A model generated the notes under the pieces. It was not told where the DNA came from, ran no database searches, and was given only the letters and a program-made list of their open reading frames with translations. Below, piece by piece: positions 10,817 through 40,977 of a stretch of DNA of 64,000 nucleotides (the stretch's first letter is position 1; every line of letters starts with the position of its first letter). Both the position numbers and the translations under genes were made by a program. The DNA is taken from the NCBI RefSeq assembly GCF_048593235.1, contig NC_133622.1, forward strand, positions 233,275,198 to 233,339,197, given 5' to 3'. This DNA is from Sminthopsis crassicaudata (lineage: Eukaryota).

Positions 10817-11377
10817 AAAATCTATCATTATTTATATTGCCAAAGGACAAGGGGAAGTAAGCAGAAAAAAGATTTACAATTAACTATTTTAAAATATGAA
10901 AGTGAAAATCTACACTTAAAAGTAAGAAAAGGAAGAAAAACATATAAAGAATAGAGAAAGTGCTCAGACATCACTTTAAATTCTCAGTTAATCAGTAATA
11001 AGTTATTAAATATTTACCTTGAATGATAGGCTTTTGGATCTAGGTCTACTATTCCTGCCATCCCAAGGAAAACAATATTCATGCTTCTTTTGTATATGCT
11101 CAGGATATCCAGGGAAGACTCAGTGATGGTCCATAGATCCCCTAATATCCTTCATCCCAGAGAGGTCAACAGCTGCTTGACTCACTCTCCTGGGTCCTGA
11201 GACTTCATTCAAGGGTGTAGAAGCCTTGATCTTTTCAATCATCCCCCAATGTTACTCATGATTCCAAGCAAGATAGTGCTATGTGAAGCACAGGGGATAG
11301 CAAGAAAGATGAAAACAACTCTTTGTTCCCCTGAAAAATCCCATTTAATAAGTAAGACCATATGTATATAAGTACAC

Positions 11378-11412
<35 letters not shown>

Positions 11413-11881
11413 CAGGGTATATGCAAAAATCTCTATGCAAATTCTTGCCTTCCCAATGGCAAGAGGGGAAGTAGGCAGAGAGAAAATGTAGAAGTCAAGA
11501 TTTTAAAACATGAAAGTTAAAATGTTCCTGTCTAACTAAGAAAAGATCAAAAAACCTATTAATGGTTCTCTAATTTCACTAGGATTGATTTCATCTTACA
11601 ACAAAGAATGGCTTCCTCTTGATATCATGATGAGTTTTTCCTCAGTGTAGAGCCTCCTGGTGGCTGACCTGGCCTCCTGCTCCCCCCATCCCCCACTGAG
11701 ACCCAGGCCAGTCTGAAAGGCTCTCAGCAAAGCTAAGTGGGCCCCAGGCAAGGAAACTAGACTTGGAAGGAAATCAAAAAGGATTTGCACTTGAACTTCT
11801 GGCTATTCTTGTGGTGATTCCCCAACTGAAAGGAAGGTGGCTCCAAGACCTCCAGAAAACCATCCAAGAACTTGAGAGTTT

Positions 11882-11899
11882 GGGCGCCCAAAGTGGGGC
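11882..11899 (+). promoter_or_regulatory. Retroviral primer-binding site, tRNA-Lys(CUU) type
   Basis: GGGCGCCCAAAGTGGGGC matches 16/18 of TGGCGCCCAACGTGGGGC. Repeated at 16256, 20602, 24962, 29318, 33342, 37706, 42060, 46416, 50780 and 55126. Confidence 0.85.
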
Positions 11900-11931
11900 T
11901 AAGCACCTACATGTGTGACCCAGAAATTAAG

Positions 11932-13066
11932 GTGAGTACACAAACAGGCAAGAAGGAAACTCGGACAAGGGCTAACGTTGTATTTCAGCTGAAATGGGAC
12001 AAGGGTTTAGAAAGGAGCCTTTTCCACCTCAAGGAAAAGGTCTAGAAAGCATGGTGACACTGAAAAATGTTCAAGGTTTTCTGGTAATGGGGTCCAGGTC
12101 AGTGAAGTCTTTGAAATATTAAAAGACACATCTCCTTGGTTCTCTAAGCACAAAGAATTCCATCCAGACCAAGGGAAAGGAGTAGGAGAGCAACTAAGTG
12201 AATATTACAATGAGAATGGTGCTCATTCAATTCCTAAAGAAGCATTTTATACCTACACCTGAATCCAATTGGTCTGAGGAAATGATGTCTGCTCAAGAAG
12301 AAGGAAAAAGAAGAAAGAGCAGGAGGGGAAGGATACTGACAAACTAGGTGAAGAGCCTGAAGAATCAGGTAAGAATGGAGTGAAGTACAATTCTGATGAA
12401 ATTAAGGAGAGTGGTGCTTCCCAGCAGGAGACATTAGGACATTCCCCAACCCCTGACCTACCCCCCACCCCCAGGAACCTATTATGGGTGGAGGGAGAAG
12501 GAGGAGGAGGAGGGGCAGGGACAGAATCAGCATCTCCTGTGAAGCAGTCTGTGACAAGATGGCAAAAGGCAAAAAGGGGGACAGGATATATCTGCTGGAA
12601 TAGAAGAATACCCTGTGAGTGAAGACTTTGATCCTTCAGATCAAGCAGGAGAAGATACACTCCTTTGGATGTGGGGAAAAAAAATCAAGGATTTGAAAAA
12701 GGGCTGTACTCTTTATGGGGCTTCTCATCTTAGGCGAAAATGGTGTTAGAGAATTTGGCTTTTGAAATGGTAACCCCTGGTGATGGCAAATGTATAGCAA
12801 GGGCATGTTGAGAACCTGGAAACAACTTGTTGTGGCTTTTGGGCTATAGTGCACTTTGTAGGATACAAGCCAGGGAGGTCTGACCTGACCAAAGAAAGCA
12901 GGAGATGTTATGGGGCAGAAGTGAAATTGAACCAGGGAAGTGAATGATGGTGTCCTTGCCAGGTACTTAGTACATAATAGAGATTCCCCCCTAAGGCTAC
13001 TGATGGGATTAGCATAGAGTATATCAACTGGGACAATCACAGCCAGACATTCATTCTCTCTCTCAG
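11932..13066 (+). other. Predicted 5'-UTR intron of the ENY2-like gene (removes gag remnant)
   Basis: Consensus donor AAG|GTGAGT just after the PBS; acceptor ttctctctctcAG at 13066 (alternative AG at 13074), ~70 nt upstream of the ATG. Prediction only. Confidence 0.6.
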
Positions 13067-13133
13067 CTTTGTAGTGACTGGAGGCTGGAGGAAAAGAACT
13101 TCACCTCAGAGATTCATTGCATCTCCTAGCATC

Positions 13134-14537
13134 ATGGAGGACTGGAAGAGGCTCAGAGAAGACAGAGCACTGGAGAATGGAGCACAAGCTCTGGGACTGA
13201 GACAGACTTCAAGAAAGAGACCCTGGAGGTCATCCTCCTCCTTGCTACCTCGAAAGCAAGACCCATTACAGAGGCCCTCCACAAAGGGGGGCCGGGCCCA
13301 GGCCCAGAACTGGAAGAGACTCGGCGAAGACAGAGGACTGGAGGCTGGAGAAGAAGCTCTGGGACTTGGACGGATTTCAAGAAAGAGACCCTGTAGGTCC
13401 TCCTCCTCCTTCCTCCACAGAAAGCAAGACCCATGCCAGAGGATCTCCAGAAAGCAGACCCAGGCCCACAACTGGAAGAGACTCGGGGAAGACAGAGGAC
13501 TGGAGGCTGGAGAAGAAGCTCTGGGACTGAGACATTCTTCAAGAAAGAGACTGTGGAGGTCATCCTCCTACTTCCTCCACAGCAACCAAGACCCATTGCA
13601 GAGGCCCTCAACAAAGGGGGCCCAGGCCCAGGCCCAGGCCCAGGCCCAGGCCCAGCATTGGAAGAGACTCGGCGAAGACAGAGGACTGGAGGCTGAAGCA
13701 CAAACTCTCGGACAGAGACAGGTTTCAAGAAAGAGACCCTGGAGGTCCTCCCCATCCTTCCTCCACAGAAAGCAAGATCCATGCCAGAGGATCTCCAGAA
13801 AGCAGACCCAGGCCCACAACTGGAAGAGACTCGGGGAAGACAGAGGACTGGAGGCCGGAGAAGAAGCTCTGGGACTGAGACATTCTTCAAGAAAGAGACT
13901 GTGGAGGTCATCCTCCTACTTCCTCCACAGCAACCAAGACCCATTGCAGAGGCCCTCCACAAAGGGGGCCCGGGCCCAGGCCCAGCACTGGAAGAGACTC
14001 GGGGAAGACAGAGGACTGGAGGCTGAAGCACAAACTCTCGGACAGAGACAGGTTTCAAGAAAGAGACCCTGGAGGTCCTCCTCATCCTTCCTCTACAGAA
14101 AGCAAGACCCTTGCCACAGGATCTCCAGAAATTGGCCCCGGACCCCAGGCAAGGAAACACACTGTGAAGGAGACACTAGACTTTTGGGGACTCCATCACC
14201 TGCCAATTCTCCTGGGGATTGCTCTGATGAAACCAAGAATACCCAAATGAACACAGAGCCACCCATCAAAGCAATTCTTCACCAGAAACTGATAGAAACT
14301 GGTGAACGACAACGACTTCAACAGTGGCTAAGAGCTCAATTGCTCCAGTGTGGTTGGAAAGATCAACTACAAGCTCATTGTCAAGATGTGATTCAGCAAA
14401 AAGGCCTAGAACAGGTGACTGTGGACAACTTGGTAGCAGAACTCACTCTCAAAGGCAGAGAGCTTGTACCCCACAGTTTGATGGAGGAACTTTTCCAAAG
14501 AGTAAAGACCTTCTTGGCTCAGCACGACAGACCTTAA
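13134..14537 (+). CDS. ENY2: ENY2-like chimeric retrogene, copy 1 (467 aa): six Arg/Ser-rich repeats plus C-terminal ENY2/Sus1 domain (14247..14537)
   Basis: The C-terminal 96 aa ([41 protein letters not shown]...EL.QR..TFLAQH) align without gaps to recalled human ENY2, ~60/96 identical, with no introns. The first ATG (ATCATGG, good Kozak) is at 13134; the track start at 13074 is GTG. This is a paralog, not the parental ENY2. Confidence 0.9.
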
Positions 14538-14736
14538 GAGGGGGCCGAACATCAACACCATGTACTTTGACTTCTTGCATCCACAAAGAACAGACATGCC
14601 ATACCTTTGCAGGGCACTTGCTAAATTAGTCCTCTTTGGGTAGGATGCATTTTCCGTGTTTTCGTAGGATACTCTGTTGGATCCATTTTTTTCTCCAAGG
14701 TCATTTTTACAAGAAATCAATAAGAAAATATTTTAA

Positions 14737-14742
14737 AATAAA
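14737..14742 (+). terminator. Candidate polyadenylation signal AATAAA (repeated in each unit)
   Basis: First AATAAA ~200 nt after the stop, at the start of an AT-rich tract that contains several more. Confidence 0.4.
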
Positions 14743-15106
14743 AACAAAAATAACATAAAAATAAGAAACTATTTAATAAATTTTAAAATCATAGAATAAC
14801 TAATCATAAAAATCATAATATAAAATCATAACATAAAACATTTAAAATCAAAAGTAAATTTAAAAATTGAATAATCAGAAATACAATAAAAATCATAAAT
14901 AATAAAACTTTTAAAGTTTTCAAAATTACCTATTTCCACTCTCATAGTCTATGTTCTCTATTTTCAACTTTGAGCATTGACTATAAATGTTACCATCTTT
15001 CCCAAGAAAGATGGCCCATTACTCTTGTAACTGTCAGAAACACTGTCCCTTTGTCTCTTGTCCCCTCCCCCCTCAATACTAGCATTTAATAAGAGGATAT
15101 GTAAAT

Positions 15107-15167
<61 letters not shown>

Positions 15168-15740
15168 CCCAGGGAATAGGCCAAAATGTCTATCCAAATT
15201 CTTGCCTTCTTAAAGGGAGAAGGGCATTTAGGCAGAGAGAAAATTTAGAACTCAATATTATAAAAAACGAAAGTGAAAAGGTTCAGATAAAAGGAATTAA
15301 AGGAAGAAAAATATGTACAAAATAGAGAAAGTCCTCAGACATCACTCTAAATTCTCAATTAATCAGTAATAAGTTATTACATATTTACATTGAATGATAG
15401 GCTTTTGGATCTAGGTCTACTTTTCCTGCCATCCCAAGGATAGCAATATTCATGCTTCTTTTGTATATGCTCAGGATATCCAGGGGAGACTCAGTGATGG
15501 CCCATAGATCCCCTAATATCCTTCATCCCAGAGAGGTCAACAGCTGCTTGACTCACTCTCCTGGGTCCTGAGATTTCATTCAAGGGTGTAGAAGCCTTGA
15601 TCTTTTCAATCATCCCCCAATGTTACTCATGATTCCAAGCAAGATAGTGCTATGTGAAGCACAGGGAATAGCAAGAAAGATGAAAACAACTCTTTGTTCC
15701 CCTGAAAAATCCCATTTAATAAGTAAGACCATATGTATAT

Positions 15741-15789
<49 letters not shown>

Positions 15790-16019
15790 GTATATGCAAA
15801 AATCTCTATGCAAATTCTTGCCTTCCCAATGGCAAGAGGGGAAGTAGGCAGAGAGAAAATGTAGAAGTCAAGATTTTAAAACATGAAAGTTAAAATGTTC
15901 CTGTCTAACTAAGAAAAGACCAAAAAAACCTATTAATGGTTCTCTAATTTCACTAGGATTGATTTCATCTTACAACAAAGAATGGCTTCCTCTTGATATC
16001 ATGATGAGTTTTTCCTCAG

Positions 16020-17442
16020 TGTAGAGCCTCCTGGTGGCTGACCTGGCCTCCTGCTCCCCCCATCCCCCACTGAGACCCAGGCCAGTCTGAAAGGCTCTCA
16101 GCAAAGCTAAGTGGGCCCCAGGCAAGGAAACTAGACTTGGAAGGAAATCAAAAAGGATTTGCACTTGAACTTCTGGCTATTCTTGTGGTGATTCCCCAAC
16201 TGAAAGGAAGGTGGCTCCAAGACCTCCAGAAAACCATCCAAGAACTTGAGAGTTTGGGCGCCCAAAGTGGGGCTAAGCACCTACATGTGTGACCCAGAAA
16301 TTAAGGTGAGTACACAAACAGGCAAGAAGGAAACTCGGACAAGGGCTAACGTTGTATTTCAGCTGAAATGGGACAGGGGTTTAGAAAGGAGCCTTTTCCA
16401 CCTCAAGGAAAAGGTCTAGAAAGCATGGTGACACTGAAAAATGTTCAAGGTTTTCTGGTAATGGGGTCCAGGTCAGTGAAGTCTTTGAAATATTAAAAGA
16501 CACATCTCCTTGGTTCTCTAAGCACAAAGAATTCCATCCAGACCAAGGGAAAGGAGTAGGAGAGCAACTAAGTGAATATTACAATGAGAATGGTGCTCAT
16601 TCAATTCCTAAAGAAGCATTTTATACCTACACCTGAATCCAATTGGTCTGAGGAAATGATGTCTGCTCAAGAAGAAGGAAAAAGAAGAAAGAGCAGGAGG
16701 GGAAGGATACTGACAAACTAGGTGAAGAGCCTGAAGAATCAGGTAAGAATGGAGTGAAGTACAATTCTGATGAAATTAAGGAGAGTGGTGCTTCCCAGCA
16801 GGAGACATTAGGACATTCCCCAACCCCCCTGACCTACCCCCCACCCCCAGGAACCTATTATGGGTGGAGGGAGAAGGAGGAGGAGGAGGGGCAGGGACAG
16901 AATCAGCATCTCCTGTGAAGCAGTCTGTGACAAGATGGCAAAAGGCAAAAAGGGGGACAGGATATATCTGCTGGAATAGAAGAATACCCTGTGAGTGAAG
17001 ACTTTGATCCTTCAGATCAAGCAGGAGAAGATACACTCCTTTGGATGTGGGGAAAAAAAATCAAGGATTTGAAAAAGGGCTGTACTCTTTATGGGGCTTC
17101 TCATCTTAGGCGAAAATGGTGTTAGAGAATTTGGCTTTTGAAATGGTAACCCCTGGTGATGGCAAATGTATAGCAAGGGCATGTTGAGAACCTGGAAACA
17201 ACTTGTTGTGGCTTTTGGGCTATAGTGCACTTTGTAGGATACAAGCCAGGGAGGTCTGACCTGACCAAAGAAAGCAGGAGATGTTATGGGGCAGAAGTGA
17301 AATTGAACCAGGGAAGTGAATGATGGTGTCCTTGCCAGGTACTTAGTACATAATAGAGATTCCCCCCTAAGGCTACTGATGGGATTAGCATAGAGTATAT
17401 CAACTGGGACAATCACAGCCAGACATTCATTCTCTCTCTCAG
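16020..17442 (+). mobile_element. ERVK-like 5' remnant, unit 2
   Basis: Near-identical to unit 1; PBS at 16256. Confidence 0.85.
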
Positions 17443-17509
17443 CTTTGTAGTGACTGGAGGCTGGAGGAAAAGAACTTCACCTCAGAGATTCATTGCATCT
17501 TCTAGCATC

Positions 17510-18907
17510 ATGGAGGACTGGAAGAGGCTCAGAGAAGACAGAGCACTGGAGAATGGAGCACAAGCTCTGGGACTGAGACAGACTTCAAGAAAGAGACCCT
17601 GGAGGTCATCCTCCTCCTTGCTACCTCGAAAGCAAGACCCATTACAGAGGCCCTCCACAAAGGGGGGCCGGGCCCAGGCCCAGAACTGGAAGAGACTCGG
17701 GCAAGACAGAGGACTGGAGGCTGGAGAAGAAGCTCTGGGACTTGGACGGATTTCAAGAAAGAGACCCTGTAGGTCCTCCTCCTCCTTCCTCCACAGAAAG
17801 CAAGACCCATGCCAGAGGATCTCCAGAAAGCAGACCCAGGCCCACAACTGGAAGAGACTCGGGGAAGACAGAGGACTGGAGGCTGGAGAAGAAGCTCTGG
17901 GACTGAGACATTCTTCAAGAAAGAGACTGTGGAGGTCATCCTCCTACTTCCTCCACAGCAACCAAGACCCATTGCAGAGGCCCTCAACAAAGGGGGCCCA
18001 GGCCCAGGCCCAGGCCCAGGCCCAGCATTGGAAGAGACTCGGGGAAGACAGAGGACTGGAGGCTGAAGCACAAACTCTCGGACAGAGACAGGTTTCAAGA
18101 AAGAGACCCTGGAGGTCCTCCCCATCCTTCCTCCACAGAAAGCAAGATCCATGCCAGAGGATCTCCAGAAAGCAGACCCAGGCCCACAACTGGAAGAGAC
18201 TCGGGGAAGACAGAGGACTGGAGGCCGGAGAAGAAGCTCTGGGACTGAGACATTCTTCAAGAAAGAGACTGTGGAGGTCATCCTCCTACTTCCTCCACAG
18301 CAACCAAGACCCATTGCAGAGGCCCTCCACAAAGGGGGCCCGGGCCCAGGCCCAGCACTGGAAGAGACTCGGGGAAGACAGAGGACTGGAGGCTGAAGCA
18401 CAAACTCTCGGACAGAGACAGGTTTCAAGAAAGAGACCCTGGAGGTCCTCCTCATCCTTCCTCTACAGAAAGCAAGACCCTTGCCACAGGATCTCCAGAA
18501 ATTGGCCCCGGACCCCAGGCAAGGAAACACACTGTGAAGGAGACACTAGACTTTTGGGGACTCCATCACCTGCCAATTCTCCTGGGGATTGCTCTGATGA
18601 AACCAAGAATACCCAAATGAACACAGAGCCACCCATCAAAGCAATTCTTCACCAGAAACTGATAGAAACTGGTGAACGACAACGACTTCAACAGTGGCTA
18701 AGAGCTCAATTGCTCCAGTGTGGTTGGAAAGATCAACTACAAGCTCATTGTCAAGATGTGATTCAGCAAAAAAGCCTAGAACAGGTGACTGTGGACAACT
18801 TGGTAGCAGAACTCACTCTCAAAGGCAGAGAGCTTGTACCCCACAGTTTGATGGAGGAACTTTTCCAAAGAGTAAAGACCTTCTTGGCTCAGCACGACAG
18901 ACCTTAA
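17510..18907 (+). CDS. ENY2: ENY2-like chimeric retrogene, copy 2 (465 aa)
   Basis: Open ORF; private G>S change in the ENY2 domain (QQKSL). Confidence 0.9.
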
Positions 18908-19476
18908 GAGGGGGCCGAACATCAACACCATGTACTTTGACTTCTTGCATCCACAAAGAACAGACATGCCATACCTTTGCAGGGCACTTGCTAAATTAGT
19001 CCTCTTTGGGTAGGATGCATTTTCCGTGTTTTCGTAGGATACTCTGTTGGATCCATTTTTTTCTCCAAGGTCATTTTTACAAGAAATCAATAAGAAAATA
19101 TTTTAAAATAAAAACAAAAATAACATAAAAATAAGAAACTATTTAATAAATTTTAAAATCATAGAATAACTAATCATAAAAATCATAATATAAAATCATA
19201 ACATAAAACATTTAAAATCAAAAGTAAATTTAAAAATTGAATAATCAGAAATACAATAAAAATCATAAATAATAAAACTTTTAAAGTTTTCAAAATTACC
19301 TATTTCCACTCTCATAGTCTATGTTCTCTATTTTCAACTTTGAGCATTGACTATAAATGTTACCATCTTTCCCAAGAAAGATGGCCCATTACTCTTGTAA
19401 CTGTCAGAAACACTGTCCCTTTGTCTCTTGTCCCCTCCCCCCTCAATACTAGCATTTAATAAGAGGATATGTAAAT

Positions 19477-19521
<45 letters not shown>

Positions 19522-20094
19522 CCCAGGGAATAGGCCAAAATGTCTATCCAAATTCTTGCCTTCTTAAAGGGAGAAGGGCATTTAGGCAGAGAGAAAATTT
19601 AGAACTCAATATTATAAAAAACGAAAGTGAAAAGGTTCAGATAAAAGGAATTAAAGGAAGAAAAATATGTACAAAATAGAGAAAGTCCTCAGACATCACT
19701 CTAAATTCTCAATTAATCAGTAATAAGTTATTACATATTTACATTGAATGATAGGCTTTTGGATCTAGGTCTACTTTTCCTGCCATCCCAAGGATAGCAA
19801 TATTCATGCTTCTTTTGTATATGCTCAGGATATCCAGGGAAGACTCAGTGATGGCCCATAGATCCCCTAATATCCTTCATCCCAGAGAGGTCAACAGCTG
19901 CTTGACTCACTCTCCTGGGTCCTGAGATTTCATTCAAGGGTGTAGAAGCCTTGATCTTTTCAATCATCCCCCAATGTTACTCATGATTCCAAGCAAGATA
20001 GTGCTATGTGAAGCACAGGGGATAGCAAGAAAGATGAAAACAACTCTTTGTTCCCCTGAAAAATCCCATTTAATAAGTAAGACCATATGTATAT

Positions 20095-20135
<41 letters not shown>

Positions 20136-20365
20136 GTATATGCAAAAATCTCTATGCAAATTCTTGCCTTCCCAATGGCAAGAGGGGAAGTAGGCAGAGA
20201 GAAAATGTAGAAGTCAAGATTTTAAAACATGAAAGTTAAAATGTTCCTGTCTAACTAAGAAAAGACCAAAAAAACCTATTAATGGTTCTCTAATTTCACT
20301 AGGATTGATTTCATCTTACAACAAAGAATGGCTTCCTCTTGATATCATGATGAGTTTTTCCTCAG

Positions 20366-21788
20366 TGTAGAGCCTCCTGGTGGCTGACCTGGCCTCCTGC
20401 TCCCCCCATCCCCCACTGAGACCCAGGCCAGTCTGAAAGGCTCTCAGCAAAGCTAAGTGGGCCCCAGGCAAGGAAACTAGACTTGGAAGGAAATCAAAAA
20501 GGATTTGCACTTGAACTTCTGGCTATTCTTGTGGTGATTCCCCAACTGAAAGGAAGGTGGCTCCAAGACCTCCAGAAAACCATCCAAGAACTTGAGAGTT
20601 TGGGCGCCCAAAGTGGGGCTAAGCACCTACATGTGTGACCCAGAAATTAAGGTGAGTACACAAACAGGCAAGAAGGAAACTCGGACAAGGGTTAACGTTG
20701 TATTTCAGCTGAAATGGGACAGGGGTTTAGAAAGGAGCCTTTTCCACCTCAAGGAAAAGGTCTAGAAAGCATGGTGACACTGAAAAATGTTCAAGGTTTT
20801 CTGGTAATGGGGTCCAGGTCAGTGAAGTCTTTGAAATATTAAAAGACACATCTCCTTGGTTCTCTAAGCACAAAGAATTCCATCCAGACCAAGGGAAAGG
20901 AGTAGGAGAGCAACTAAGTGAATATTACAATGAGAATGGTGCTCATTCAATTCCTAAAGAAGCATTTTATACCTACACCTGAATCCAATTGGTCTGAGGA
21001 AATGATGTCTGCTCAAGAAGAAGGAAAAAGAAGAAAGAGCAGGAGGGGAAGGATACTGACAAACTAGGTGAAGAGCCTGAAGAATCAGGTAAGAATGGAG
21101 TGAAGTACAATTCTGATGAAATTAAGGAGAGTGGTGCTTCCCAGCAGGAGACATTAGGACATTCCCCAACCCCCCTGACCTACCCCCCACCCCCAGGAAC
21201 CTATTATGGGTGGAGGGAGAAGGAGGAGGAGGAGGGGCAGGGACAGAATCAGCATCTCCTGTGAAGCAGTCTGTGACAAGATGGCAAAAGGCAAAAAGGG
21301 GGACAGGATATATCTGCTGGAATAGAAGAATACCCTGTGAGTGAAGACTTTGATCCTTCAGATCAAGCAGGAGAAGATACACTCCTTTGGATGTGGGGAA
21401 AAAAAATCAAGGATTTGAAAAAGGGCTGTACTCTTTATGGGGCTTCTCATCTTAGGCGAAAATGGTGTTAGAGAATTTGGCTTTTGAAATGGTAACCCCT
21501 GGTGATGGCAAATGTATAGCAAGGGCATGTTGAGAACCTGGAAACAACTTGTTGTGGCTTTTGGGCTATAGTGCACTTTGTAGGATACAAGCCAGGGAGG
21601 TCTGACCTGACCTAAGAAAGCAGGAGATGTTATGGGGCAGAAGTGAAATTGAACCAGGGAAGTGAATGATGGTGTCCTTGCCAGGTACTTAGTACATAAT
21701 AGAGATTCCCCCCTAAGGCTACTGATGGGATTAGCATAGAGTATATCAACTGGGACAATCACAGCCAGACATTCATTCTCTCTCTCAG
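20366..21788 (+). mobile_element. ERVK-like 5' remnant, unit 3
   Basis: Near-identical to unit 1; PBS at 20602. Confidence 0.85.
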
Positions 21789-21855
21789 CTTTGTAGTGAC
21801 TGGAGGCTGGAGGAAAAGAACTTCACCTCAGAGATTCATTGCATCTCCTAGCATC

Positions 21856-23253
21856 ATGGAGGACTGGAAGAGGCTCAGAGAAGACAGAGCACTGGAGAAT
21901 GGAGCACAAGCTCTGGGACTGAGACAGACTTCAAGAAAGAGACCCTGGAGGTCATCCTCCTCCTTGCTATCTCGAAAGCAAGACCCATTACAGAGGCCCT
22001 CCACAAAGGGGGGCCGGGCCCAGGCCCAGAACTGGAAGAGACTCGGGCAAGACAGAGGACTGGAGGCTGGAGAAGAAGCTCTGGGACTTGGACGGATTTC
22101 AAGAAAGAGACCCTGTAGGTCCTCCTCCTCCTTCCTCCACAGAAAGCAAGACCCATGCCAGAGGATCTCCAGAAAGCAGACCCAGGCCCACAACTGGAAG
22201 AGACTCGGGGAAGACAGAGGACTGGAGGCTGGAGAAGAAGCTCTGGGACTGAGACATTCTTCAAGAAAGAGACTGTGGAGGTCATCCTCCTACTTCCTCC
22301 ACAGCAACCAAGACCCATTGCAGAGGCCCTCAACAAAGGGGGCCCAGGCCCAGGCCCAGGCCCAGGCCCAGCATTGGAAGAGACTCGGCGAAGACAGAGG
22401 ACTGGAGGCTGAAGCACAAACTCTCGGACAGAGACAGGTTTCAAGAAAGAGACCCTGGAGGTCCTCCCCATCCTTCCTCCACAGAAAGCAAGATCCATGC
22501 CAGAGGATCTCCAGAAAGCAGACCCAGGCCCACAACTGGAAGAGACTCGGGGAAGACAGAGGACTGGAGGCCGGAGAAGAAGCTCTGGGACTGAGACATT
22601 CTTCAAGAAAGAGACTGTGGAGGTCATCCTCCTACTTCCTCCACAGCAACCAAGACCCATTGCAGAGGCCCTCCACAAAGGGGGCCCGGGCCCAGGCCCA
22701 GCACTGGAAGAGACTCGGGGAAGACAGAGGACTGGAGGCTGAAGCACAAACTCTCGGACAGAGACAGGTTTCAAGAAAGAGACCCTGGAGGTCCTCCTCA
22801 TCCTTCCTCTACAGAAAGCAAGACCCTTGCCACAGGATCTCCAGAAATTGGCCCCGGACCCCAGGCAAGGAAACACACTGTGAAGGAGACACTAGACTTT
22901 TGGGGACTCCATCACCTGCCAATTCTCCTGGGGATTGCTCTGATGAAACCAAGAATACCCAAATGAACACAGAGCCACCCATCAAAGCAATTCTTCACCA
23001 GAAACTGATAGAAACTGGTGAACGACAACGACTTCAACAGTGGCTAAGAGCTCAATTGCTCCAGTGTGGTTGGAAAGATCAACTACAAGCTCATTGTCAA
23101 GATGTGATTCAGCAAAAAGGCCTAGAACAGGTGACTGTGGACAACTTGGTAGCAGAACTCACTCTCAAAGGCAGAGAGCTTGTACCCCACAGTTTGATGG
23201 AGGAACTTTTCCAAAGAGTAAAGACCTTCTTGGCTCAGCACGACAGACCTTAA
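21856..23253 (+). CDS. ENY2: ENY2-like chimeric retrogene, copy 3 (465 aa)
   Basis: Open ORF; private P>S change in repeat 1 (LLSRK). Confidence 0.9.
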
Positions 23254-23822
23254 GAGGGGGCCGAACATCAACACCATGTACTTTGACTTCTTGCATCCAC
23301 AAAGAACAGACATGCCATACCTTTGCAGGGCACTTGCTAAATTAGTCCTCTTTGGGTAGGATGCATTTTCCGTGTTTTCGTAGGATACTCTGTTGGATCC
23401 ATTTTTTTCTCCAAGGTCATTTTTACAAGAAATCAATAAGAAAATATTTTAAAATAAAAACAAAAATAACATAAAAATAAGAAACTATTTAATAAATTTT
23501 AAAATCATAGAATAACTAATCATAAAAATCATAATATAAAATCATAACATAAAACATTTAAAATCAAAAGTAAATTTAAAAATTGAATAATCAGAAATAC
23601 AATAAAAATCATAAATAATAAAACTTTTAAAGTTTTCAAAATTAACTATTTCCACTCTCATAGTCTATGTTCTCTATTTTCAACTTTGAGCATTGACTAT
23701 AAATGTTACCATCTTTCCCAAGAAAGATGGCCCATTACTCTTGTAACTGTCAGAAACACTGTCCCTTTGTCTCTTGTCCCCTCCCCCCTCAATACTAGCA
23801 TTTAATAAGAGGATATGTAAAT

Positions 23823-23873
<51 letters not shown>

Positions 23874-24446
23874 CCCAGGGAATAGGCCAAAATGTCTATC
23901 CAAATTCTTGCCTTCTTAAAGGGAGAAGGGCATTTAGGCAGAGAGAAAATTTAGAACTCAATATTATAAAAAACGAAAGTGAAAAGGTTCAGATAAAAGG
24001 AATTAAAGGAAGAAAAATATGTACAAAATAGAGAAAGTCCTCAGACATCACTCTAAATTCTCAATTAATCAGTAATAAGTTATTACATATTTACATTGAA
24101 TGATAGGCTTTTGGATCTAGGTCTACTTTTCCTGCCATCCCAAGGATAGCAATATTCATGCTTCTTTTGTATATGCTCAGGATATCCAGGGAAGACTCAG
24201 TGATGGCCCATAGATCCCCTAATATCCTTCATCCCAGAGAGGTCAACAGCTGCTTGACTCACTCTCCTGGGTCCTGAGATTTCATTCAAGGGTGTAGAAG
24301 CCTTGATCTTTTCAATCATCCCCCAATGTTACTCATGATTCCAAGCAAGATAGTGCTATGTGAAGCACAGGGGATAGCAAGAAAGATGAAAACAACTCTT
24401 TGTTCCCCTGAAAAATCCCATTTAATAAGTAAGACCATATGTATAT

Positions 24447-24495
<49 letters not shown>

Positions 24496-24725
24496 GTATA
24501 TGCAAAAATCTCTATGCAAATTCTTGCCTTCCCAATGGCAAGAGGGGAAGTAGGCAGAGAGAAAATGTAGAAGTCAAGATTTTAAAACATGAAAGTTAAA
24601 ATGTTCCTGTCTAACTAAGAAAAGACCAAAAAAACCTATTAATGGTTCTCTAATTTCACTAGGATTGATTTCATCTTACAACAAAGAATGGCTTCCTCTT
24701 GATATCATGATGAGTTTTTCCTCAG

Positions 24726-26148
24726 TGTAGAGCCTCCTGGTGGCTGACCTGGCCTCCTGCTCCCCCCATCCCCCACTGAGACCCAGGCCAGTCTGAAAGG
24801 CTCTCAGCAAAGCTAAGTGGGCCCCAGGCAAGGAAACTAGACTTGGAAGGAAATCAAAAAGGATTTGCACTTGAACTTCTGGCTATTCTTGTGGTGATTC
24901 CCCAACTGAAAGGAAGGTGGCTCCAAGACCTCCAGAAAACCATCCAAGAACTTGAGAGTTTGGGCGCCCAAAGTGGGGCTAAGCACCTACATGTGTGACC
25001 CAGAAATTAAGGTGAGTACACAAACAGGCAAGAAGGAAACTCGGACAAGGGTTAACGTTGTATTTCAGCTGAAATGGGACAGGGGTTTAGAAAGGAGCCT
25101 TTTCCACCTCAAGGAAAAGGTCTAGAAAGCATGGTGACACTGAAAAATGTTCAAGGTTTTCTGGTAATGGGGTCCAGGTCAGTGAAGTCTTTGAAATATT
25201 AAAAGACACATCTCCTTGGTTCTCTAAGCACAAAGAATTCCATCCAGACCAAGGGAAAGGAGTAGGAGAGCAACTAAGTGAATATTACAATGAGAATGGT
25301 GCTCATTCAATTCCTAAAGAAGCATTTTATACCTACACCTGAATCCAATTGGTCTGAGGAAATGATGTCTGCTCAAGAAGAAGGAAAAAGAAGAAAGAGC
25401 AGGAGGGGAAGGATACTGACAAACTAGGTGAAGAGCCTGAAGAATCAGGTAAGAATGGAGTGAAGTACAATTCTGATGAAATTAAGGAGAGTGGTGCTTC
25501 CCAGCAGGAGACATTAGGACATTCCCCAACCCCCCTGACCTACCCCCCACCCCCAGGAACCTATTATGGGTGGAGGGAGAAGGAGGAGGAGGAGGGGCAG
25601 GGACAGAATCAGCATCTCCTGTGAAGCAGTCTGTGACAAGATGGCAAAAGGCAAAAAGGGGGACAGGATATATCTGCTGGAATAGAAGAATACCCTGTGA
25701 GTGAAGACTTTGATCCTTCAGATCAAGCAGGAGAAGATACACTCCTTTGGATGTGGGGAAAAAAAATCAAGGATTTGAAAAAGGGCTGTACTCTTTATGG
25801 GGCTTCTCATCTTAGGCGAAAATGGTGTTAGAGAATTTGGCTTTTGAAATGGTAACCCCTGGTGATGGCAAATGTATAGCAAGGGCATGTTGAGAACCTG
25901 GAAACAACTTGTTGTGGCTTTTGGGCTATAGTGCACTTTGTAGGATACAAGCCAGGGAGGTCTGACCTGACCAAAGAAAGCAGGAGATGTTATGGGGCAG
26001 AAGTGAAATTGAACCAGGGAAGTGAATGATGGTGTCCTTGCCAGGTACTTAGTACATAATAGAGATTCCCCCCTAAGGCTACTGATGGGATTAGCATAGA
26101 GTATATCAACTGGGACAATCACAGCCAGACATTCATTCTCTCTCTCAG
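24726..26148 (+). mobile_element. ERVK-like 5' remnant, unit 4
   Basis: Near-identical to unit 1; PBS at 24962. Confidence 0.85.
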
Positions 26149-26215
26149 CTTTGTAGTGACTGGAGGCTGGAGGAAAAGAACTTCACCTCAGAGATTCATT
26201 GCATCTCCTAGCATC

Positions 26216-27613
26216 ATGGAGGACTGGAAGAGGCTCAGAGAAGACAGAGCACTGGAGAATGGAGCACAAGCTCTGGGACTGAGACAGACTTCAAGAAAGA
26301 GACCCTGGAGGTCATCCTCCTCCTTGCTACCTCGAAAGCAAGACCCATTACAGAGGCCCTCCACAAAGGGGGGCCGGGCCCAGGCCCAGAACTGGAAGAG
26401 ACTCGGGCAAGACAGAGGACTGGAGGCTGGAGAAGAAGCTCTGGGACTTGGACGGATTTCAAGAAAGAGACCCTGTAGGTCCTCCTCCTCCTTCCTCCAC
26501 AGAAAGCAAGACCCATGCCAGAGGATCTCCAGAAAGCAGACCCAGGCCCACAACTGGAAGAGACTCGGGGAAGACAGAGGACTGGAGGCTGGAGAAGAAG
26601 CTCTGGGACTGAGACATTCTTCAAGAAAGAGACTGTGGAGGTCATCCTCCTACTTCCTCCACAGCAACCAAGACCCATTGCAGAGGCCCTCAACAAAGGG
26701 GGCCCAGGCCCAGGCCCAGGCCCAGGCCCAGCATTGGAAGAGACTCGGCGAAGACAGAGGACTGGAGGCTGAAGCACAAACTCTCGGACAGAGACAGGTT
26801 TCAAGAAAGAGACCCTGGAGGTCCTCCCCATCCTTCCTCCACAGAAAGCAAGATCCATGCCAGAGGATCTCCAGAAAGCAGACCCAGGCCCACAACTGGA
26901 AGAGACTCGGGGAAGACAGAGGACTGGAGGCCGGAGAAGAAGCTCTGGGACTGAGACATTCTTCAAGAAAGAGACTGTGGAGGTCATCCTCCTACTTCCT
27001 CCACAGCAACCAAGACCCATTGCAGAGGCCCTCCACAAAGGGGGCCCGGGCCCAGGCCCAGCACTGGAAGAGACTCGGGGAAGACAGAGGACTGGAGGCT
27101 GAAGCACAAACTCTCGGACAGAGACAGGTTTCAAGAAAGAGACCCTGGAGGTCCTCCTCATCCTTCCTCTACAGAAAGCAAGACCCTTGCCACAGGATCT
27201 CCAGAAATTGGCCCCGGACCCCAGGCAAGGAAACACACTGTGAAGGAGACACTAGACTTTTGGGGACTCCATCACCTGCCAATTCTCCTGGGGATTGCTC
27301 TGATGAAACCAAGAATACCCAAATGAACACAGAGCCACCCATCAAAGCAATTCTTCACCAGAAACTGATAGAAACTGGTGAACGACAACGACTTCAACAG
27401 TGGCTAAGAGCTCAATTGCTCCAGTGTGGTTGGAAAGATCAACTACAAGCTCATTGTCAAGATGTGATTCAGCAAAAAGGCCTAGAACAGGTGACTGTGG
27501 ACAACTTGGTAGCAGAACTCACTCTCAAAGGCAGAGAGCTTGTACCCCACAGTTTGATGGAGGAACTTTTCCAAAGAGTAAAGACCTTCTTGGCTCAGCA
27601 CGACAGACCTTAA
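26216..27613 (+). CDS. ENY2: ENY2-like chimeric retrogene, copy 4 (465 aa)
   Basis: Open ORF, consensus protein. Confidence 0.9.
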
Positions 27614-28182
27614 GAGGGGGCCGAACATCAACACCATGTACTTTGACTTCTTGCATCCACAAAGAACAGACATGCCATACCTTTGCAGGGCACTTGCTAA
27701 ATTAGTCCTCTTTGGGTAGGATGCATTTTCCGTGTTTTCGTAGGATACTCTGTTGGATCCATTTTTTTCTCCAAGGTCATTTTTACAAGAAATCAATAAG
27801 AAAATATTTTAAAATAAAAACAAAAATAACATAAAAATAAGAAACTATTTAATAAATTTTAAAATCATAGAATAACTAATCATAAAAATCATAATATAAA
27901 ATCATAACATAAAACATTTAAAATCAAAAGTAAATTTAAAAATTGAATAATCAGAAATACAATAAAAATCATAAATAATAAAACTTTTAAAGTTTTCAAA
28001 ATTACCTATTTCCACTCTCATAGTCTATGTTCTCTATTTTCAACTTTGAGCATTGACTATAAATGTTACCATCTTTCCCAAGAAAGATGGCCCATTACTC
28101 TTGTAACTGTCAGAAACACTGTCCCTTTGTCTCTTGTCCCCTCCCCCCTCAATACTAGCATTTAATAAGAGGATATGTAAAT

Positions 28183-28233
<51 letters not shown>

Positions 28234-28806
28234 CCCAGGGAATAGGCCAAAATGTCTATCCAAATTCTTGCCTTCTTAAAGGGAGAAGGGCATTTAGGCA
28301 GAGAGAAAATTTAGAACTCAATATTATAAAAAACGAAAGTGAAAAGGTTCAGATAAAAGGAATTAAAGGAAGAAAAATATGTACAAAATAGAGAAAGTCC
28401 TCAGACATCACTCTAAATTCTCAATTAATCAGTAATAAGTTATTACATATTTACATTGAATGATAGGCTTTTGGATCTAGGTCTACTTTTCCTGCCATCC
28501 CAAGGATAGCAATATTCATGCTTCTTTTGTATATGCTCAGGATATCCAGGGAAGACTCAGTGATGGCCCATAGATCCCCTAATATCCTTCATCCCAGAGA
28601 GGTCAACAGCTGCTTGACTCACTCTCCTGGGTCCTGAGATTTCATTCAAGGGTGTAGAAGCCTTGATCTTTTCAATCATCCCCCAATGTTACTCATGATT
28701 CCAAGCAAGATAGTGCTATGTGAAGCACAGGGGATAGCAAGAAAGATGAAAACAACTCTTTGTTCCCCTGAAAAATCCCATTTAATAAGTAAGACCATAT
28801 GTATAT

Positions 28807-28851
<45 letters not shown>

Positions 28852-29081
28852 GTATATGCAAAAATCTCTATGCAAATTCTTGCCTTCCCAATGGCAAGAG
28901 GGGAAGTAGGCAGAGAGAAAATGTAGAAGTCAAGATTTTAAAACATGAAAGTTAAAATGTTCCTGTCTAACTAAGAAAAGACCAAAAAAACCTATTAATG
29001 GTTCTCTAATTTCACTAGGATTGATTTCATCTTACAACAAAGAATGGCTTCCTCTTGATATCATGATGAGTTTTTCCTCAG

Positions 29082-30504
29082 TGTAGAGCCTCCTGGTGGC
29101 TGACCTGGCCTCCTGCTCCCCCCATCCCCCACTGAGACCCAGGCCAGTCTGAAAGGCTCTCAGCAAAGCTAAGTGGGCCCCAGGCAAGGAAACTAGACTT
29201 GGAAGGAAATCAAAAAGGATTTGCACTTGAACTTCTGGCTATTCTTGTGGTGATTCCCCAACTGAAAGGAAGGTGGCTCCAAGACCTCCAGAAAACCATC
29301 CAAGAACTTGAGAGTTTGGGCGCCCAAAGTGGGGCTAAGCACCTACATGTGTGACCCAGAAATTAAGGTGAGTACACAAACAGGCAAGAAGGAAACTCGG
29401 ACAAGGGTTAACGTTGTATTTCAGCTGAAATGGGACAGGGGTTTAGAAAGGAGCCTTTTCCACCTCAAGGAAAAGGTCTAGAAAGCATGGTGACACTGAA
29501 AAATGTTCAAGGTTTTCTGGTAATGGGGTCCAGGTCAGTGAAGTCTTTGAAATATTAAAAGACACATCTCCTTGGTTCTCTAAGCACAAAGAATTCCATC
29601 CAGACCAAGGGAAAGGAGTAGGAGAGCAACTAAGTGAATATTACAATGAGAATGGTGCTCATTCAATTCCTAAAGAAGCATTTTATACCTACACCTGAAT
29701 CCAATTGGTCTGAGGAAATGATGTCTGCTCAAGAAGAAGGAAAAAGAAGAAAGAGCAGGAGGGGAAGGATACTGACAAACTAGGTGAAGAGCCTGAAGAA
29801 TCAGGTAAGAATGGAGTGAAGTACAATTCTGATGAAATTAAGGAGAGTGGTGCTTCCCAGCAGGAGACATTAGGACATTCCCCAACCCCCCTGACCTACC
29901 CCCCACCCCCAGGAACCTATTATGGGTGGAGGGAGAAGGAGGAGGAGGAGGGGCAGGGACAGAATCAGCATCTCCTGTGAAGCAGTCTGTGACAAGATGG
30001 CAAAAGGCAAAAAGGGGGACAGGATATATCTGCTGGAATAGAAGAATACCCTGTGAGTGAAGACTTTGATCCTTCAGATCAAGCAGGAGAAGATACACTC
30101 CTTTGGATGTGGGGAAAAAAAATCAAGGATTTGAAAAAGGGCTGTACTCTTTATGGGGCTTCTCATCTTAGGCGAAAATGGTGTTAGAGAATTTGGCTTT
30201 TGAAATGGTAACCCCTGGTGATGGCAAATGTATAGCAAGGGCATGTTGAGAACCTGGAAACAACTTGTTGTGGCTTTTGGGCTATAGTGCACTTTGTAGG
30301 ATACAAGCCAGGGAGGTCTGACCTGACCAAAGAAAGCAGGAGATGTTATGGGGCAGAAGTGAAATTGAACCAGGGAAGTGAATGATGGTGTCCTTGCCAG
30401 GTACTTAGTACATAATAGAGATTCCCCCCTAAGGCTACTGATGGGATTAGCATAGAGTATATCAACTGGGACAATCACAGCCAGACATTCATTCTCTCTC
30501 TCAG
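29082..30504 (+). mobile_element. ERVK-like 5' remnant, unit 5
   Basis: Near-identical to unit 1; PBS at 29318. Confidence 0.85.
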
Positions 30505-30571
30505 CTTTGTAGTGACTGGAGGCTGGAGGAAAAGAACTTCACCTCAGAGATTCATTGCATCTCCTAGCATC

Positions 30572-31639
30572 ATGGAGGACTGGAAGAGGCTCAGAGAAGA
30601 CAGAGCACTGGAGAATGGAGCACAAGCTCTGGGACTGAGACAGACTTCAAGAAAGAGACCCTGGAGGTCATCCTCCTCCTTGCTACCTCGAAAGCAAGAC
30701 CCATTACAGAGGCCCTCCACAAAGGGGGGCCGGGCCCAGGCCCAGAACTGGAAGAGACTCGGGCAAGACAGAGGACTGGAGGCTGGAGAAGAAGCTCTGG
30801 GACTTGGACGGATTTCAAGAAAGAGACCCTGTAGGTCCTCCTCCTCCTTCCTCCACAGAAAGCAAGACCCATGCCAGAGGATCTCCAGAAAGCAGACCCA
30901 GGCCCACAACTGGAAGAGACTCGGGGAAGACAGAGGACTGGAGGCTGGAGAAGAAGCTCTGGGACTGAGACATTCTTCAAGAAAGAGACTGTGGAGGTCA
31001 TCCTCCTACTTCCTCCACAGCAACCAAGACCCATTGCAGAGGCCCTCAACAAAGGGGGCCCAGGCCCAGGCCCAGGCCCAGGCCCAGCATTGGAAGAGAC
31101 TCGGCGAAGACAGAGGACTGGAGGCTGAAGCACAAACTCTCGGACAGAGACAGGTTTCAAGAAAGAGACCCTGGAGGTCCTCCTCATCCTTCCTCTACAG
31201 AAAGCAAGACCCTTGCCACAGGATCTCCAGAAATTGGCCCCGGACCCCAGGCAAGGAAACACACTGTGAAGGAGACACTAGACTTTTGGGGACTCCATCA
31301 CCTGCCAATTCTCCTGGGGATTGCTCTGATGAAACCAAGAATACCCAAATGAACACAGAGCCACCCATCAAAGCAATTCTTCACCAGAAACTGATAGAAA
31401 CTGGTGAACGACAACGACTTCAACAGTGGCTAAGAGCTCAATTGCTCCAGTGTGGTTGGAAAGATCAACTACAAGCTCATTGTCAAGATGTGATTCAGCA
31501 AAAAGGCCTAGAACAGGTGACTGTGGACAACTTGGTAGCAGAACTCACTCTCAAAGGCAGAGAGCTTGTACCCCACAGTTTGATGGAGGAACTTTTCCAA
31601 AGAGTAAAGACCTTCTTGGCTCAGCACGACAGACCTTAA
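30572..31639 (+). CDS. ENY2: ENY2-like chimeric retrogene, copy 5 (355 aa, four repeats)
   Basis: Open ORF with an in-frame 330-bp deletion of one repeat dimer; ENY2 domain intact. Confidence 0.9.
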
Positions 31640-32208
31640 GAGGGGGCCGAACATCAACACCATGTACTTTGATTTCTTGCATCCACAAAGAACAGACATG
31701 CCATACCTTTGCAGGGCACTTGCTAAATTAGTCCTCTTTGGGTAGGATGCATTTTCCGTGTTTTCGTAGGATACTCTGTTGGATCCATTTTTTTCTCCAA
31801 GGTCATTTTTACAAGAAATCAATAAGAAAATATTTTAAAATAAAAACAAAAATAACATAAAAATAAGAAACTATTTAATAAATTTTAAAATCATAGAATA
31901 ACTAATCATAAAAATCATAATATAAAATTATAACATAAAACATTTAAAATCAAAAGTAAATTTAAAAATTGAATAATCAGAAATACAATAAAAATCATAA
32001 ATAATAAAACTTTTAAAGTTTTCAAAATTACCTATTTCCACTCTCATAGTCTATGTTCTCTATTTTCAACTTTGAGCATTGACTATAAATGTTACCATCT
32101 TTCCCAAGAAAGATGGCCCATTACTCTTGTAACTGTCAGAAACACTGTCCCTTTGTCTCTTGTCCCCTCCCCCCTCAATACTAGCATTTAATAAGAGGAT
32201 ATGTAAAT

Positions 32209-32255
<47 letters not shown>

Positions 32256-32828
32256 CCCAGGGAATAGGCCAAAATGTCTATCCAAATTCTTGCCTTCTTA
32301 AAGGGAGAAGGGCATTTAGGCAGAGAGAAAATTTAGAACTCAATATTATAAAAAACGAAAGTGAAAAGGTTCAGATAAAAGGAATTAAAGGAAGAAAAAT
32401 ATGTACAAAATAGAGAAAGTCCTCAGACATCACTCTAAATTCTCAATTAATCAGTAATAAGTTATTACATATTTACATTGAATGATAGGCTTTTGGATCT
32501 AGGTCTACTTTTCCTGCCATCCCAAGGATAGCAATATTCATGCTTCTTTTGTATATGCTCAGGATATCCAGGGAAGACTCAGTGATGGCCCATAGATCCC
32601 CTAATATCCTTCATCCCAGAGAGGTCAACAGCTGCTTGACTCACTCTCCTGGGTCCTGAGATTTCATTCAAGGGTGTAGAAGCCTTGATCTTTTCAATCA
32701 TCCCCCAATGTTACTCATGATTCCAAGCAAGATAGTGCTATGTGAAGCACAGGGGATAGCAAGAAAGATGAAAACAACTCTTTGTTCCCCTGAAAAATCC
32801 CATTTAATAAGTAAGACCATATGTATAT

Positions 32829-32875
<47 letters not shown>

Positions 32876-33105
32876 GTATATGCAAAAATCTCTATGCAAA
32901 TTCTTGCCTTCCCAATGGCAAGAGGGGAAGTAGGCAGAGAGAAAATGTAGAAGTCAAGATTTTAAAACATGAAAGTTAAAATGTTCCTGTCTAACTAAGA
33001 AAAGACCAAAAAAACCTATTAATGGTTCTCTAATTTCACTAGGATTGATTTCATCTTACAACAAAGAATGGCTTCCTCTTGATATCATGATGAGTTTTTC
33101 CTCAG

Positions 33106-34528
33106 TGTAGAGCCTCCTGGTGGCTGACCTGGCCTCCTGCTCCCCCCATCCCCCACTGAGACCCAGGCCAGTCTGAAAGGCTCTCAGCAAAGCTAAGTGG
33201 GCCCCAGGCAAGGAAACTAGACTTGGAAGGAAATCAAAAAGGATTTGCACTTGAACTTCTGGCTATTCTTGTGGTGATTCCCCAACTGAAAGGAAGGTGG
33301 CTCCAAGACCTCCAGAAAACCATCCAAGAACTTGAGAGTTTGGGCGCCCAAAGTGGGGCTAAGCACCTACATGTGTGACCCAGAAATTAAGGTGAGTACA
33401 CAAACAGGCAAGAAGGAAACTCGGACAAGGGTTAACGTTGTATTTCAGCTGAAATGGGACAGGGGTTTAGAAAGGAGCCTTTTCCACCTCAAGGAAAAGG
33501 TCTAGAAAGCATGGTGACACTGAAAAATGTTCAAGGTTTTCTGGTAATGGGGTCCAGGTCAGTGAAGTCTTTGAAATATTAAAAGACACATCTCCTTGGT
33601 TCTCTAAGCACAAAGAATTCCATCCAGACCAAGGGAAAGGAGTAGGAGAGCAACTAAGTGAATATTACAATGAGAATGGTGCTCATTCAATTCCTAAAGA
33701 AGCATTTTATACCTACACCTGAATCCAATTGGTCTGAGGAAATGATGTCTGCTCAAGAAGAAGGAAAAAGAAGAAAGAGCAGGAGGGGAAGGATACTGAC
33801 AAACTAGGTGAAGAGCCTGAAGAATCAGGTAAGAATGGAGTGAAGTACAATTCTGATGAAATTAAGGAGAGTGGTGCTTCCCAGCAGGAGACATTAGGAC
33901 ATTCCCCAACCCCCCTGACCTACCCCCCACCCCCAGGAACCTATTATGGGTGGAGGGAGAAGGAGGAGGAGGAGGGGCAGGGACAGAATCAGCATCTCCT
34001 GTGAAGCAGTCTGTGGCAAGATGGCAAAAGGCAAAAAGGGGGACAGGATATATCTGCTGGAATAGAAGAATACCCTGTGAGTGAAGACTTTGATCCTTCA
34101 GATCAAGCAGGAGAAGATACACTCCTTTGGATGTGGGGAAAAAAAATCAAGGATTTGAAAAAGGGCTGTACTCTTTATGGGGCTTCTCATCTTAGGCGAA
34201 AATGGTGTTAGAGAATTTGGCTTTTGAAATGGTAACCCCTGGTGATGGCAAATGTATAGCAAGGGCATGTTGAGAACCTGGAAACAACTTGTTGTGGCTT
34301 TTGGGCTATAGTGCACTTTGTAGGATACAAGCCAGGGAGGTCTGACCTGACCAAAGAAAGCAGGAGATGTTATGGGGCAGAAGTGAAATTGAACCAGGGA
34401 AGTGAATGATGGTGTCCTTGCCAGGTACTTAGTACATAATAGAGATTCCCCCCTAAGGCTACTGATGGGATTAGCATAGAGTATATCAACTGGGACAATC
34501 ACAGCCAGACATTCATTCTCTCTCTCAG
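33106..34528 (+). mobile_element. ERVK-like 5' remnant, unit 6
   Basis: Near-identical to unit 1; PBS at 33342. Confidence 0.85.
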
Positions 34529-34595
34529 CTTTGTAGTGACTGGAGGCTGGAGGAAAAGAACTTCACCTCAGAGATTCATTGCATCTCCTAGCATC

Positions 34596-36564: not shown

Positions 36565-36617
<53 letters not shown>

Positions 36618-37190: not shown

Positions 37191-37239
<49 letters not shown>

Positions 37240-37469
37240 GTATATGCAAAAATCTCTATGCAAATTCTTGCCTTCCCAATGGCAAGAGGGGAAGTAGGCA
37301 GAGAGAAAATGTAGAAGTCAAGATTTTAAAACATGAAAGTTAAAATGTTCCTGTCTAACTAAGAAAAGACCAAAAAAACCTATTAATGGTTCTCTAATTT
37401 CACTAGGATTGATTTCATCTTACAACAAAGAATGGCTTCCTCTTGATATCATGATGAGTTTTTCCTCAG

Positions 37470-40928: not shown

Positions 40929-40977
<49 letters not shown>

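Follow-up and report, generated by a model that had tools for sequence, protein, structure and literature searches.

LTR-mediated retrocopies, as the main text of Tan et al. 2016 (PMC5131818) describes them, are host cDNAs fused to LTR-element sequence, with short similarity at the junctions and no poly(A), and the cDNA is enclosed by a discontinuous element whose LTR sequence flanks it left and right. The same text reports in-frame proteins and re-mobilisation and cites FAM8A1/HERV-K; the word 'inverted' does not occur in it. ENY2 retrocopies are frequent in mammals according to PMC12611072, where the copies are said to keep high conservation and the parental structure; neither the main text nor one text supplement of that paper names a marsupial, although its supplementary figures may list marsupial copies. 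The paper also describes E(y)2b, a testis paralogue in Drosophila that binds Sgf11 and Xmas-2 and not the DUB module, and assigns helix 1 to contacts with NonStop and helices 2-5 to contacts with Sgf11.

The ENY2 gene analysed here lies in a window of 64,000 nucleotides (the whole stretch that was studied) from the dunnart Sminthopsis crassicaudata. Set against the main text of PMC5131818, it works like an LTR-mediated chimeric retrogene minus one defining feature, the flanking element in the same orientation. The likeness lies in an intronless cDNA fused to LTR-element DNA, with no L1 hallmarks. Unlike the retrocopies described there, however, the dunnart cDNA is bracketed by the 5′ part of one LTR and by an inverted LTR 5′ end of about 27 bp, and the same-orientation flanking element is missing, the 3′ side being inverted in L025, L026, L051 and L023 as well. 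The 5′ junction also differs in lying at an exon boundary, and LTR DNA makes up most of the coding frame. The gene likewise departs from the retrocopies described in the text of PMC12611072 in that it is 64% identical to its parent, carries a 371-aa extension and stands in ten tandem copies. Our literature search, which was thin on subscription papers, returned nothing on ENY2 in dunnart, on this locus or on this form of capture, and the accessible part of the preprint bioRxiv 10.1101/2025.08.12.669816 does not mention ENY2. The features of the array and of its first unit are as follows.

10842..55970, + strand: tandem array with a period of ~4.36 kb and ten intact ORFs (TRF, sequence comparison)
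11558..11880, + strand: incomplete LTR from a related subfamily, lying 5′ of the gene in every array unit (dispersed LTR copies match at 72-84%)
11881..11899, + strand: primer-binding-site-like sequence (same position after the LTR in L034 and L037; 11 copies in the window)
11900..12937, + strand: broken gag remnant (Gag_p10 PF02337, E 1.4e-6 at 12011-12259; 73% to the L034 internal region)
12938..13133, + strand: 3′ portion of LTR U3 with the beginning of R (LTR copy L032 shares 259/356 nt over 12960-13303)
13134..13136, + strand: first ATG, within LTR sequence (strong context, A at -3 and G at +4)
13143..14132, + strand: six in-frame tandem segments of the LTR R/U5 region, alternating A and B (48-codon core plus GGCCCA spacer)
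14133..14237, + strand: linker, LTR sequence 3′ of the unit up to the LTR-ENY2 junction (13983-14237 aligned to L034 and L032)
14238..14537, + strand: intronless ENY2 exons 2-5 (four parental exon blocks on C1, 75-81% identical)
14538..14995, + strand: ENY2 3′ UTR, expanded by AT-rich sequence (AATAAA words at 14737, 14775, 14885 and 14901)
14996..15023, + strand: degraded LTR 5′ end in inverted orientation, at the close of the captured element (sequence; intact form in L025, L026, L051 and L023)

In copy 1, the ORF list gives a single open frame (13134-14537, +; 467 aa) that runs through six units and a linker into an EnY2 domain. The alternation of six repeats of types A and B, claimed in the earlier note, was confirmed by six W[KN][RK]L unit starts in one frame (13143, 13311, 13473, 13659, 13821 and 13989), spaced by 168, 162, 186, 162 and 168 nt; TRF assigned periods of 168 (5.9 copies) and ~348 (2.9 copies) to the same region. 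The 48-codon core is ungapped across units and length varies only in the GGCCCA (AQ) spacer, while the first Trp is conserved in 6/6 units and the second in 5/6 (Cys in unit 2). The repeat region is basic (R+K 22%, net +38, pI 11.4) and predicted to be disordered (FoldIndex -0.30). The linker to ENY2, which the note had put at a 38-aa scale, is about 40 aa long. The EnY2 family (PF10163) matches at aa 380-461 (E 3e-23; 82.3 bits against a cut-off of 27), and human ENY2 (4dhx_B) matches with E 8.7e-38. The first 368/467 codons, 79% or about four-fifths of the protein, are LTR-derived. On the opposite strand, a frame at 13153-14085 (-; 310 codons) is open in all ten copies (198 codons in copy 5); it is likely a by-product, because it is interrupted in the C4 copy.

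A TATA-like word lies at 13017-13028, with no ATG from there to 13134, and the LTR segment 12938..13133 is likely the 5′ UTR and, judging from these signals, a putative promoter. The C2 element shares the ATG of 13134, there out of frame with ENY2. Four out-of-frame ATGs separate the first ATG from the internal Met at 14247, which has lost its -3 purine (C, where the parent has A). Downstream, the AT-rich expansion at 14720-14900 is absent in the parent, is common to the C4 copy, which ends just past it, and adds several AATAAA words.

The source of the repeats, which the earlier note had not recognised, was sought in the host genome using a two-unit protein query. A total of 150 of 752 candidates were scored, giving 149 matches, of which 34 were the array and its paralogues and 115 were scattered across seven contigs, stops being present in many. 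Of these scattered matches the best 15, representing 14 loci, were retrieved, and all 15 belong to one ~540-bp element; each matches the last repeat and linker at 72-80% over 230-259 nt. Window positions 13983-14237 aligned to L034 (190/259) and L032 (205/259), both of which end at the same AAG. At L034 the element has TG...CA ends, followed by the primer-binding-site-like word, which we take to be of tRNA-Lys type, and then by gag remnants (Gag_p10 E 1.8e-10, zf-CCHC_5 E 3.4e-7, and two p24 pieces below cut-off), and a 6-bp target duplication flanks L035, a solo LTR from the family. Because of the primer-binding-site-like word, gag and the TG..CA ends, a SINE origin was ruled out, and by these hallmarks the source of the repeats and linker is an endogenous-retrovirus LTR. 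The alignments show that LTR DNA runs directly into ENY2 exon 2 at its first base, and the promoter region, first ATG, repeats and linker of the window are all colinear with the LTR. At L034, two LTR copies (1479-2016 and 5084-5626) that are 92.6% identical lie inverted 3 kb apart, with the gag remnants after the first. To our knowledge, domesticated retroviral proteins derive from gag, pol or env, whereas the dunnart repeats derive from an LTR.

Read in the same frame, all 15 LTR copies share 24-31 identical residues over 45-48 aligned codons with the repeats, and the core is open in the repeat frame in 3/15; both figures lean high, since the copies were picked via a protein search. The RKR cluster and conserved Trp residues to which the earlier note drew attention are indeed present in the repeats, but since same-frame LTR translations already spell most motif residues, they are mostly inherited letters and no sign that NLS or kinase motifs evolved. 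Searches for proteins related to the repeats found none: with the full protein as query, no such relative among 8000 scored candidates reached E<=0.001, a weak search of 63 candidates contained no fused form of greater length, and among the best 150 of 694 hits from 1.84 billion representatives the best stretch always lay in the linker or ENY2 end and never in the repeats. No Pfam family matches the repeats (an NFLD hit below cut-off was rejected), and the best atlas score with the repeats, 0.82, is chance level.

The spliced ENY2 parent lies on C1, where exons 2-5 were mapped, and the ENY2 part of the window gene is identical to it at 61/96 aa. Within intron 1 of the parent, 640 bp short of exon 2, lies a 160-bp fragment from the same family of LTRs in sense orientation (C1:129817529-129817688). 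A possible splice acceptor immediately precedes this fragment, which retains a GT donor-like site and is thereby a candidate alternative exon. In four insertions (C2, C3, C4:426 Mb and the C6 lineage) the LTR breaks off at one and the same AAG, where exon 2 follows from its first base. All carry spliced ENY2 cDNA, which has undergone internal rearrangement at C4:426 Mb, and in all the 3′ UTR gives way at an identical point to ~27 bp of LTR 5′ end in inverted orientation, which closes the insertion. None of the four has poly(A) at its 3′ end. Perfect 6-bp target duplications flank the C3 (GGAAAT) and C4:426 Mb (CCCAGA) insertions, the C2 flanks match at 4/6 positions, and the C6 lineage insertion has lost its 5′ end. 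The three captures other than the C6 lineage, at L025:2569-3642, L026:2554-3681 and L051:989-1866, have differing flanks and LTR R regions that look like different subfamilies. At the 3′ junction, about 9 nt (CTTTCTCCA) are common to the ENY2 3′ UTR and the inverted LTR end, and the 5′ junction fits a splice and a 3-nt similarity equally well. As donor dinucleotide, L034 and the parent's intron fragment have GT and most LTR copies have GC. In identity to the parent's intron piece, the U5 of C4:426 Mb (92/103) surpasses all 14 LTR loci (best 90/106), that of C3 (87/105) is within the range of the LTR loci and those of C2 (74/104) and C6 (79-80/110) are not close. These comparisons support a single cis origin of all four captures only in part; as a possible trace of descent among them, one replacement is common to C2 and C3.

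We infer that the LTR piece in parent intron 1 gave rise to an RNA spliced from the LTR to exon 2, which a retroviral reverse transcriptase would have copied while a plus-strand fragment of the LTR start paired with the ~9-nt similarity in the ENY2 3′ UTR; integrase would have inserted the product. Template switching with other LTR subfamilies would also be required, because the donor is GC in most copies and the parent's fragment is clearly the nearest match for just one of the four U5 parts. The broadest scenario extends this to a tRNA-independent, non-autonomous retroelement (LTR 5′ part, ENY2 cDNA and inverted LTR end, primed by plus-strand DNA of a helper virus and inserted by the integrase of that virus) that would have seeded at least four sites in a dasyurid genome, one of them domesticated into a new germline gene whose protein, 79% LTR-derived, would have been adaptively remodelled and amplified tenfold as a decoy tuning H2B deubiquitination or mRNA export; taken as a whole, this chain is unlikely to hold.

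The sibling copies differ in the number of LTR units. The C2 and C3 copies have one unit and stops in the ENY2 frame; the C6:173.8 Mb copy combines a truncated A unit with a complete B unit in a frame that is open over 236 codons, and a neighbouring fragment has more units and one frameshift; the C4:333.7 Mb copy and the window have six units each. Comparison of the copies shows that in the chromosome-6 lineage an LTR segment entered the frame, two units became six, and the gene gave rise to a copy on C4 and to the tenfold array. NCBI proteins at the window locus and C4 have 96 aa and start at the internal Met, and the 467-, 465- and 455-aa forms are absent from the protein collection searched; at C6:173.8 Mb, NCBI annotates an ENY2-like paralogue (P0001, 189 aa) with a 93-aa LTR-derived extension. 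The C4:333.7 Mb copy retains all six repeats and, with an A-rich tail and a 13-bp target duplication, shows signs of being an L1-type retrocopy, so that the repeats were once in polyadenylated RNA of cells of the heritable lineage. The dunnart copies resemble L1-mediated processed retrogenes in being intronless, and the C4:333.7 Mb daughter also in these signs, but the founding insertions are unlike these in having no poly(A), LTR-terminus ends and 6-bp duplications, against the 7-20 bp of L1 target duplications. The C4 retrocopy begins upstream of the LTR TATA-like word, and its RNA thus did not start at this LTR promoter; by these structural signs it shows past and not present expression.

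The ten array ORFs start at 13134, 17510, 21856, 26216, 30572, 34596, 38960, 43314, 47670 and 52034. The genes are 99.1-99.5% identical to unit 1, apart from copy 5, in which one 330-bp dimer is missing and the frame is retained, and the eight ORFs of equal length vary at 4 of 1398 columns. Because the copies are so alike, the intactness of the ten ORFs was set aside as evidence of function. The array sits among inverted duplications that are 97-98% identical, on the 258-Mb C6, which is taken from its size to be an autosome. Near-identical tandem copies, flanking inverted duplications and fast-evolving basic repeats are found in ampliconic germline gene arrays and TE-derived coding sequence, and the dunnart array has all three. 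Several side features of the surroundings were recorded. Nested inverted duplications (79-98% identical) lie on both sides of the array, at 6733-9928 and 56308-59980 and at 1-6114 and beyond 64000, and the stretch 6805-9926 is duplicated also at C6:173.84 Mb, 59 Mb away (86-89% identical). Lone remnants of ENY2 3′ UTR and inverted LTR end with a common 3′ flank, at window positions 9707-10233, L052:1501-1726 and L053:1501-1724, are relics of older duplications around the array. Just before the array its flank is broken by a ~580-bp insertion bounded by TG...CA (10235-10818), probably another LTR type, and a 575-codon open C-terminal piece at 60190-61917 (+) presumably represents L1 ORF2.

Selection on the ENY2 domain was estimated using a branch codon model over 96 codons, with five tests whose p values are uncorrected. 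The dN/dS was 0.22 (p=0.004) on the window and C4 tips, 3.8 (p=0.047) on their stem, 3.5 (p=0.08) on the C6:173.8 Mb tip, 0.87 on the two broken copies and 0.018 on the parent. Statistically, this shows a burst of amino-acid change in the domain followed by purifying selection. Replacement differences in ENY2 (8/226) are about one third of the UTR divergence (58/567; p=0.0015). Since 13/17 ENY2 differences from C4 lie on the window branch, array conversion bias may lower the ENY2 dN/dS. Hydrophobic positions, used as a sequence proxy for the helical hairpin, stay hydrophobic in 35/39 cases (27 identical), 11/34 charged positions became Q, H or N, and the start of helix 1 is altered.

The repeats keep their reading frame and hardly their sequence. 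Over 12 units their dN/dS is 0.72, which is not significant against 1 (p=0.18) or against the UTRs (p=0.07). The concern raised beforehand, that the repeat might be a fragment of a transposable element without constraint, thus held as to origin, the fragment being LTR, and amino-acid constraint did not reach significance. At least 84 substitutions in the repeats created 0 stops against ~5 expected (P about 0.005), and of the 6 frames only the ENY2 frame is stop-free in both the window and C4. There are 0 frameshifting indels in 1113 nt of repeats and 4 in 354 nt of UTR (p=0.003); measured against the LTR copies, 0.86 frameshifts were expected and the difference is not significant (P=0.42). The open frame was partly pre-existing, as the LTR segment is open in 3/15 copies and rarely takes frameshifts. 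Moreover, gene conversion between units makes the substitutions non-independent and, together with the choice of a locus for being open, weakens the frame tests. Triplet-sized ORF indels (6, 24, 6 and 330 nt) were rejected as frame evidence, being hexamer or unit steps.

The likeliest reading of the locus is an ENY2 paralogue with a basic tail that is translated, the protein being a candidate titrator of SAGA-DUB/TREX-2. More fully, and with a probability of roughly one half, the fusion would be translated, its ENY2 clamp still binding ATXN7L3/GANP helices, while a neutralised surface and altered helix 1 would weaken the contact with USP22 and the basic tail would add nuclear or nucleic-acid affinity without precise motifs. 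It is rather unlikely that the repeats are instead an untranslated or uselessly translated leader, the product being the 96-aa ENY2 from Met 14247, whose dose the array raises. The NCBI models beginning at that Met, clear selection on the ENY2 part only and an LTR frame that is open by itself in a fifth of the copies would fit such a leader. It accords poorly, however, with five upstream ATGs, the first in strong context and the internal one weakened, with the lack of stops among the repeat substitutions, with the C4 retrocopy, which places the repeats inside RNA, and with the LTR-derived extension that NCBI annotates on the shorter C6:173.8 Mb paralogue. A processed pseudogene that evolves neutrally inside an unstable macrosatellite, with inverted segmental duplications on either side, could account for the highly identical duplications and the broken or partial siblings (C2, C3, C4:426 Mb, L024, L052 and L053); we consider it very improbable for the array as a whole, given purifying selection on the ENY2 part, for which the broken copies serve as control, and two six-repeat copies (window and C4:333.7 Mb) that are both intact though 8% apart (92% identical over the frame).

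As regards the tail, the repeats might be a selected multivalent module that uses its RKR, Ser-run and Trp motifs for kinase-controlled binding to chromatin or RNA, as their six-fold array, basic charge and predicted disorder, a Ser run longer than in LTR translations (WRSSSSF compared with WWSSCF-like) and a repeat dN/dS point estimate below 1 could suggest. With most motif residues pre-existing in LTR copies, that dN/dS not significant, and no repeat relative in the best 150 hits, Pfam or the atlas, we judge this decidedly improbable; a loosely constrained basic appendage is more likely than a motif-coded phospho-switch. Under the preferred reading of a translated fusion, translation would start at 13134 and the ENY2 domain would bind ATXN7L3/GANP, while the altered surface and the basic, predicted-disordered tail, acting through charge, length and disorder more than exact motifs, would exclude the protein from the normal SAGA deubiquitinase module. 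The protein would then be a dosage-tunable competitor or retargeter of ENY2; the competitor role is transferred by analogy from fly E(y)2b, as described in the text of PMC12611072. Among 19 listed sequencing runs, none of them recorded as RNA, 4 runs from one study, whose type was guessed, contained 83-85% of query words, and this was not counted as expression evidence. The product is likely a germline nuclear protein, and the array is plausibly a young functional gene.

The observed repeats are real, and their origin is explained. If true, this would be a fully staged case of a non-coding retroviral LTR becoming a large protein domain, with the intermediates all in one genome: the LTR piece in the parent's intron, broken copies with a single unit, a two-unit copy, six-unit copies and a ten-gene array. 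The locus and its siblings also show a form of gene capture for which we found no description, in which one LTR and an inverted LTR end, with integrase-sized target duplications, enclose the cDNA at the same junctions four times. Finally, the dunnart gene offers a mammalian test of divergent ENY2 paralogues as germline competitors, as proposed for fly E(y)2b.
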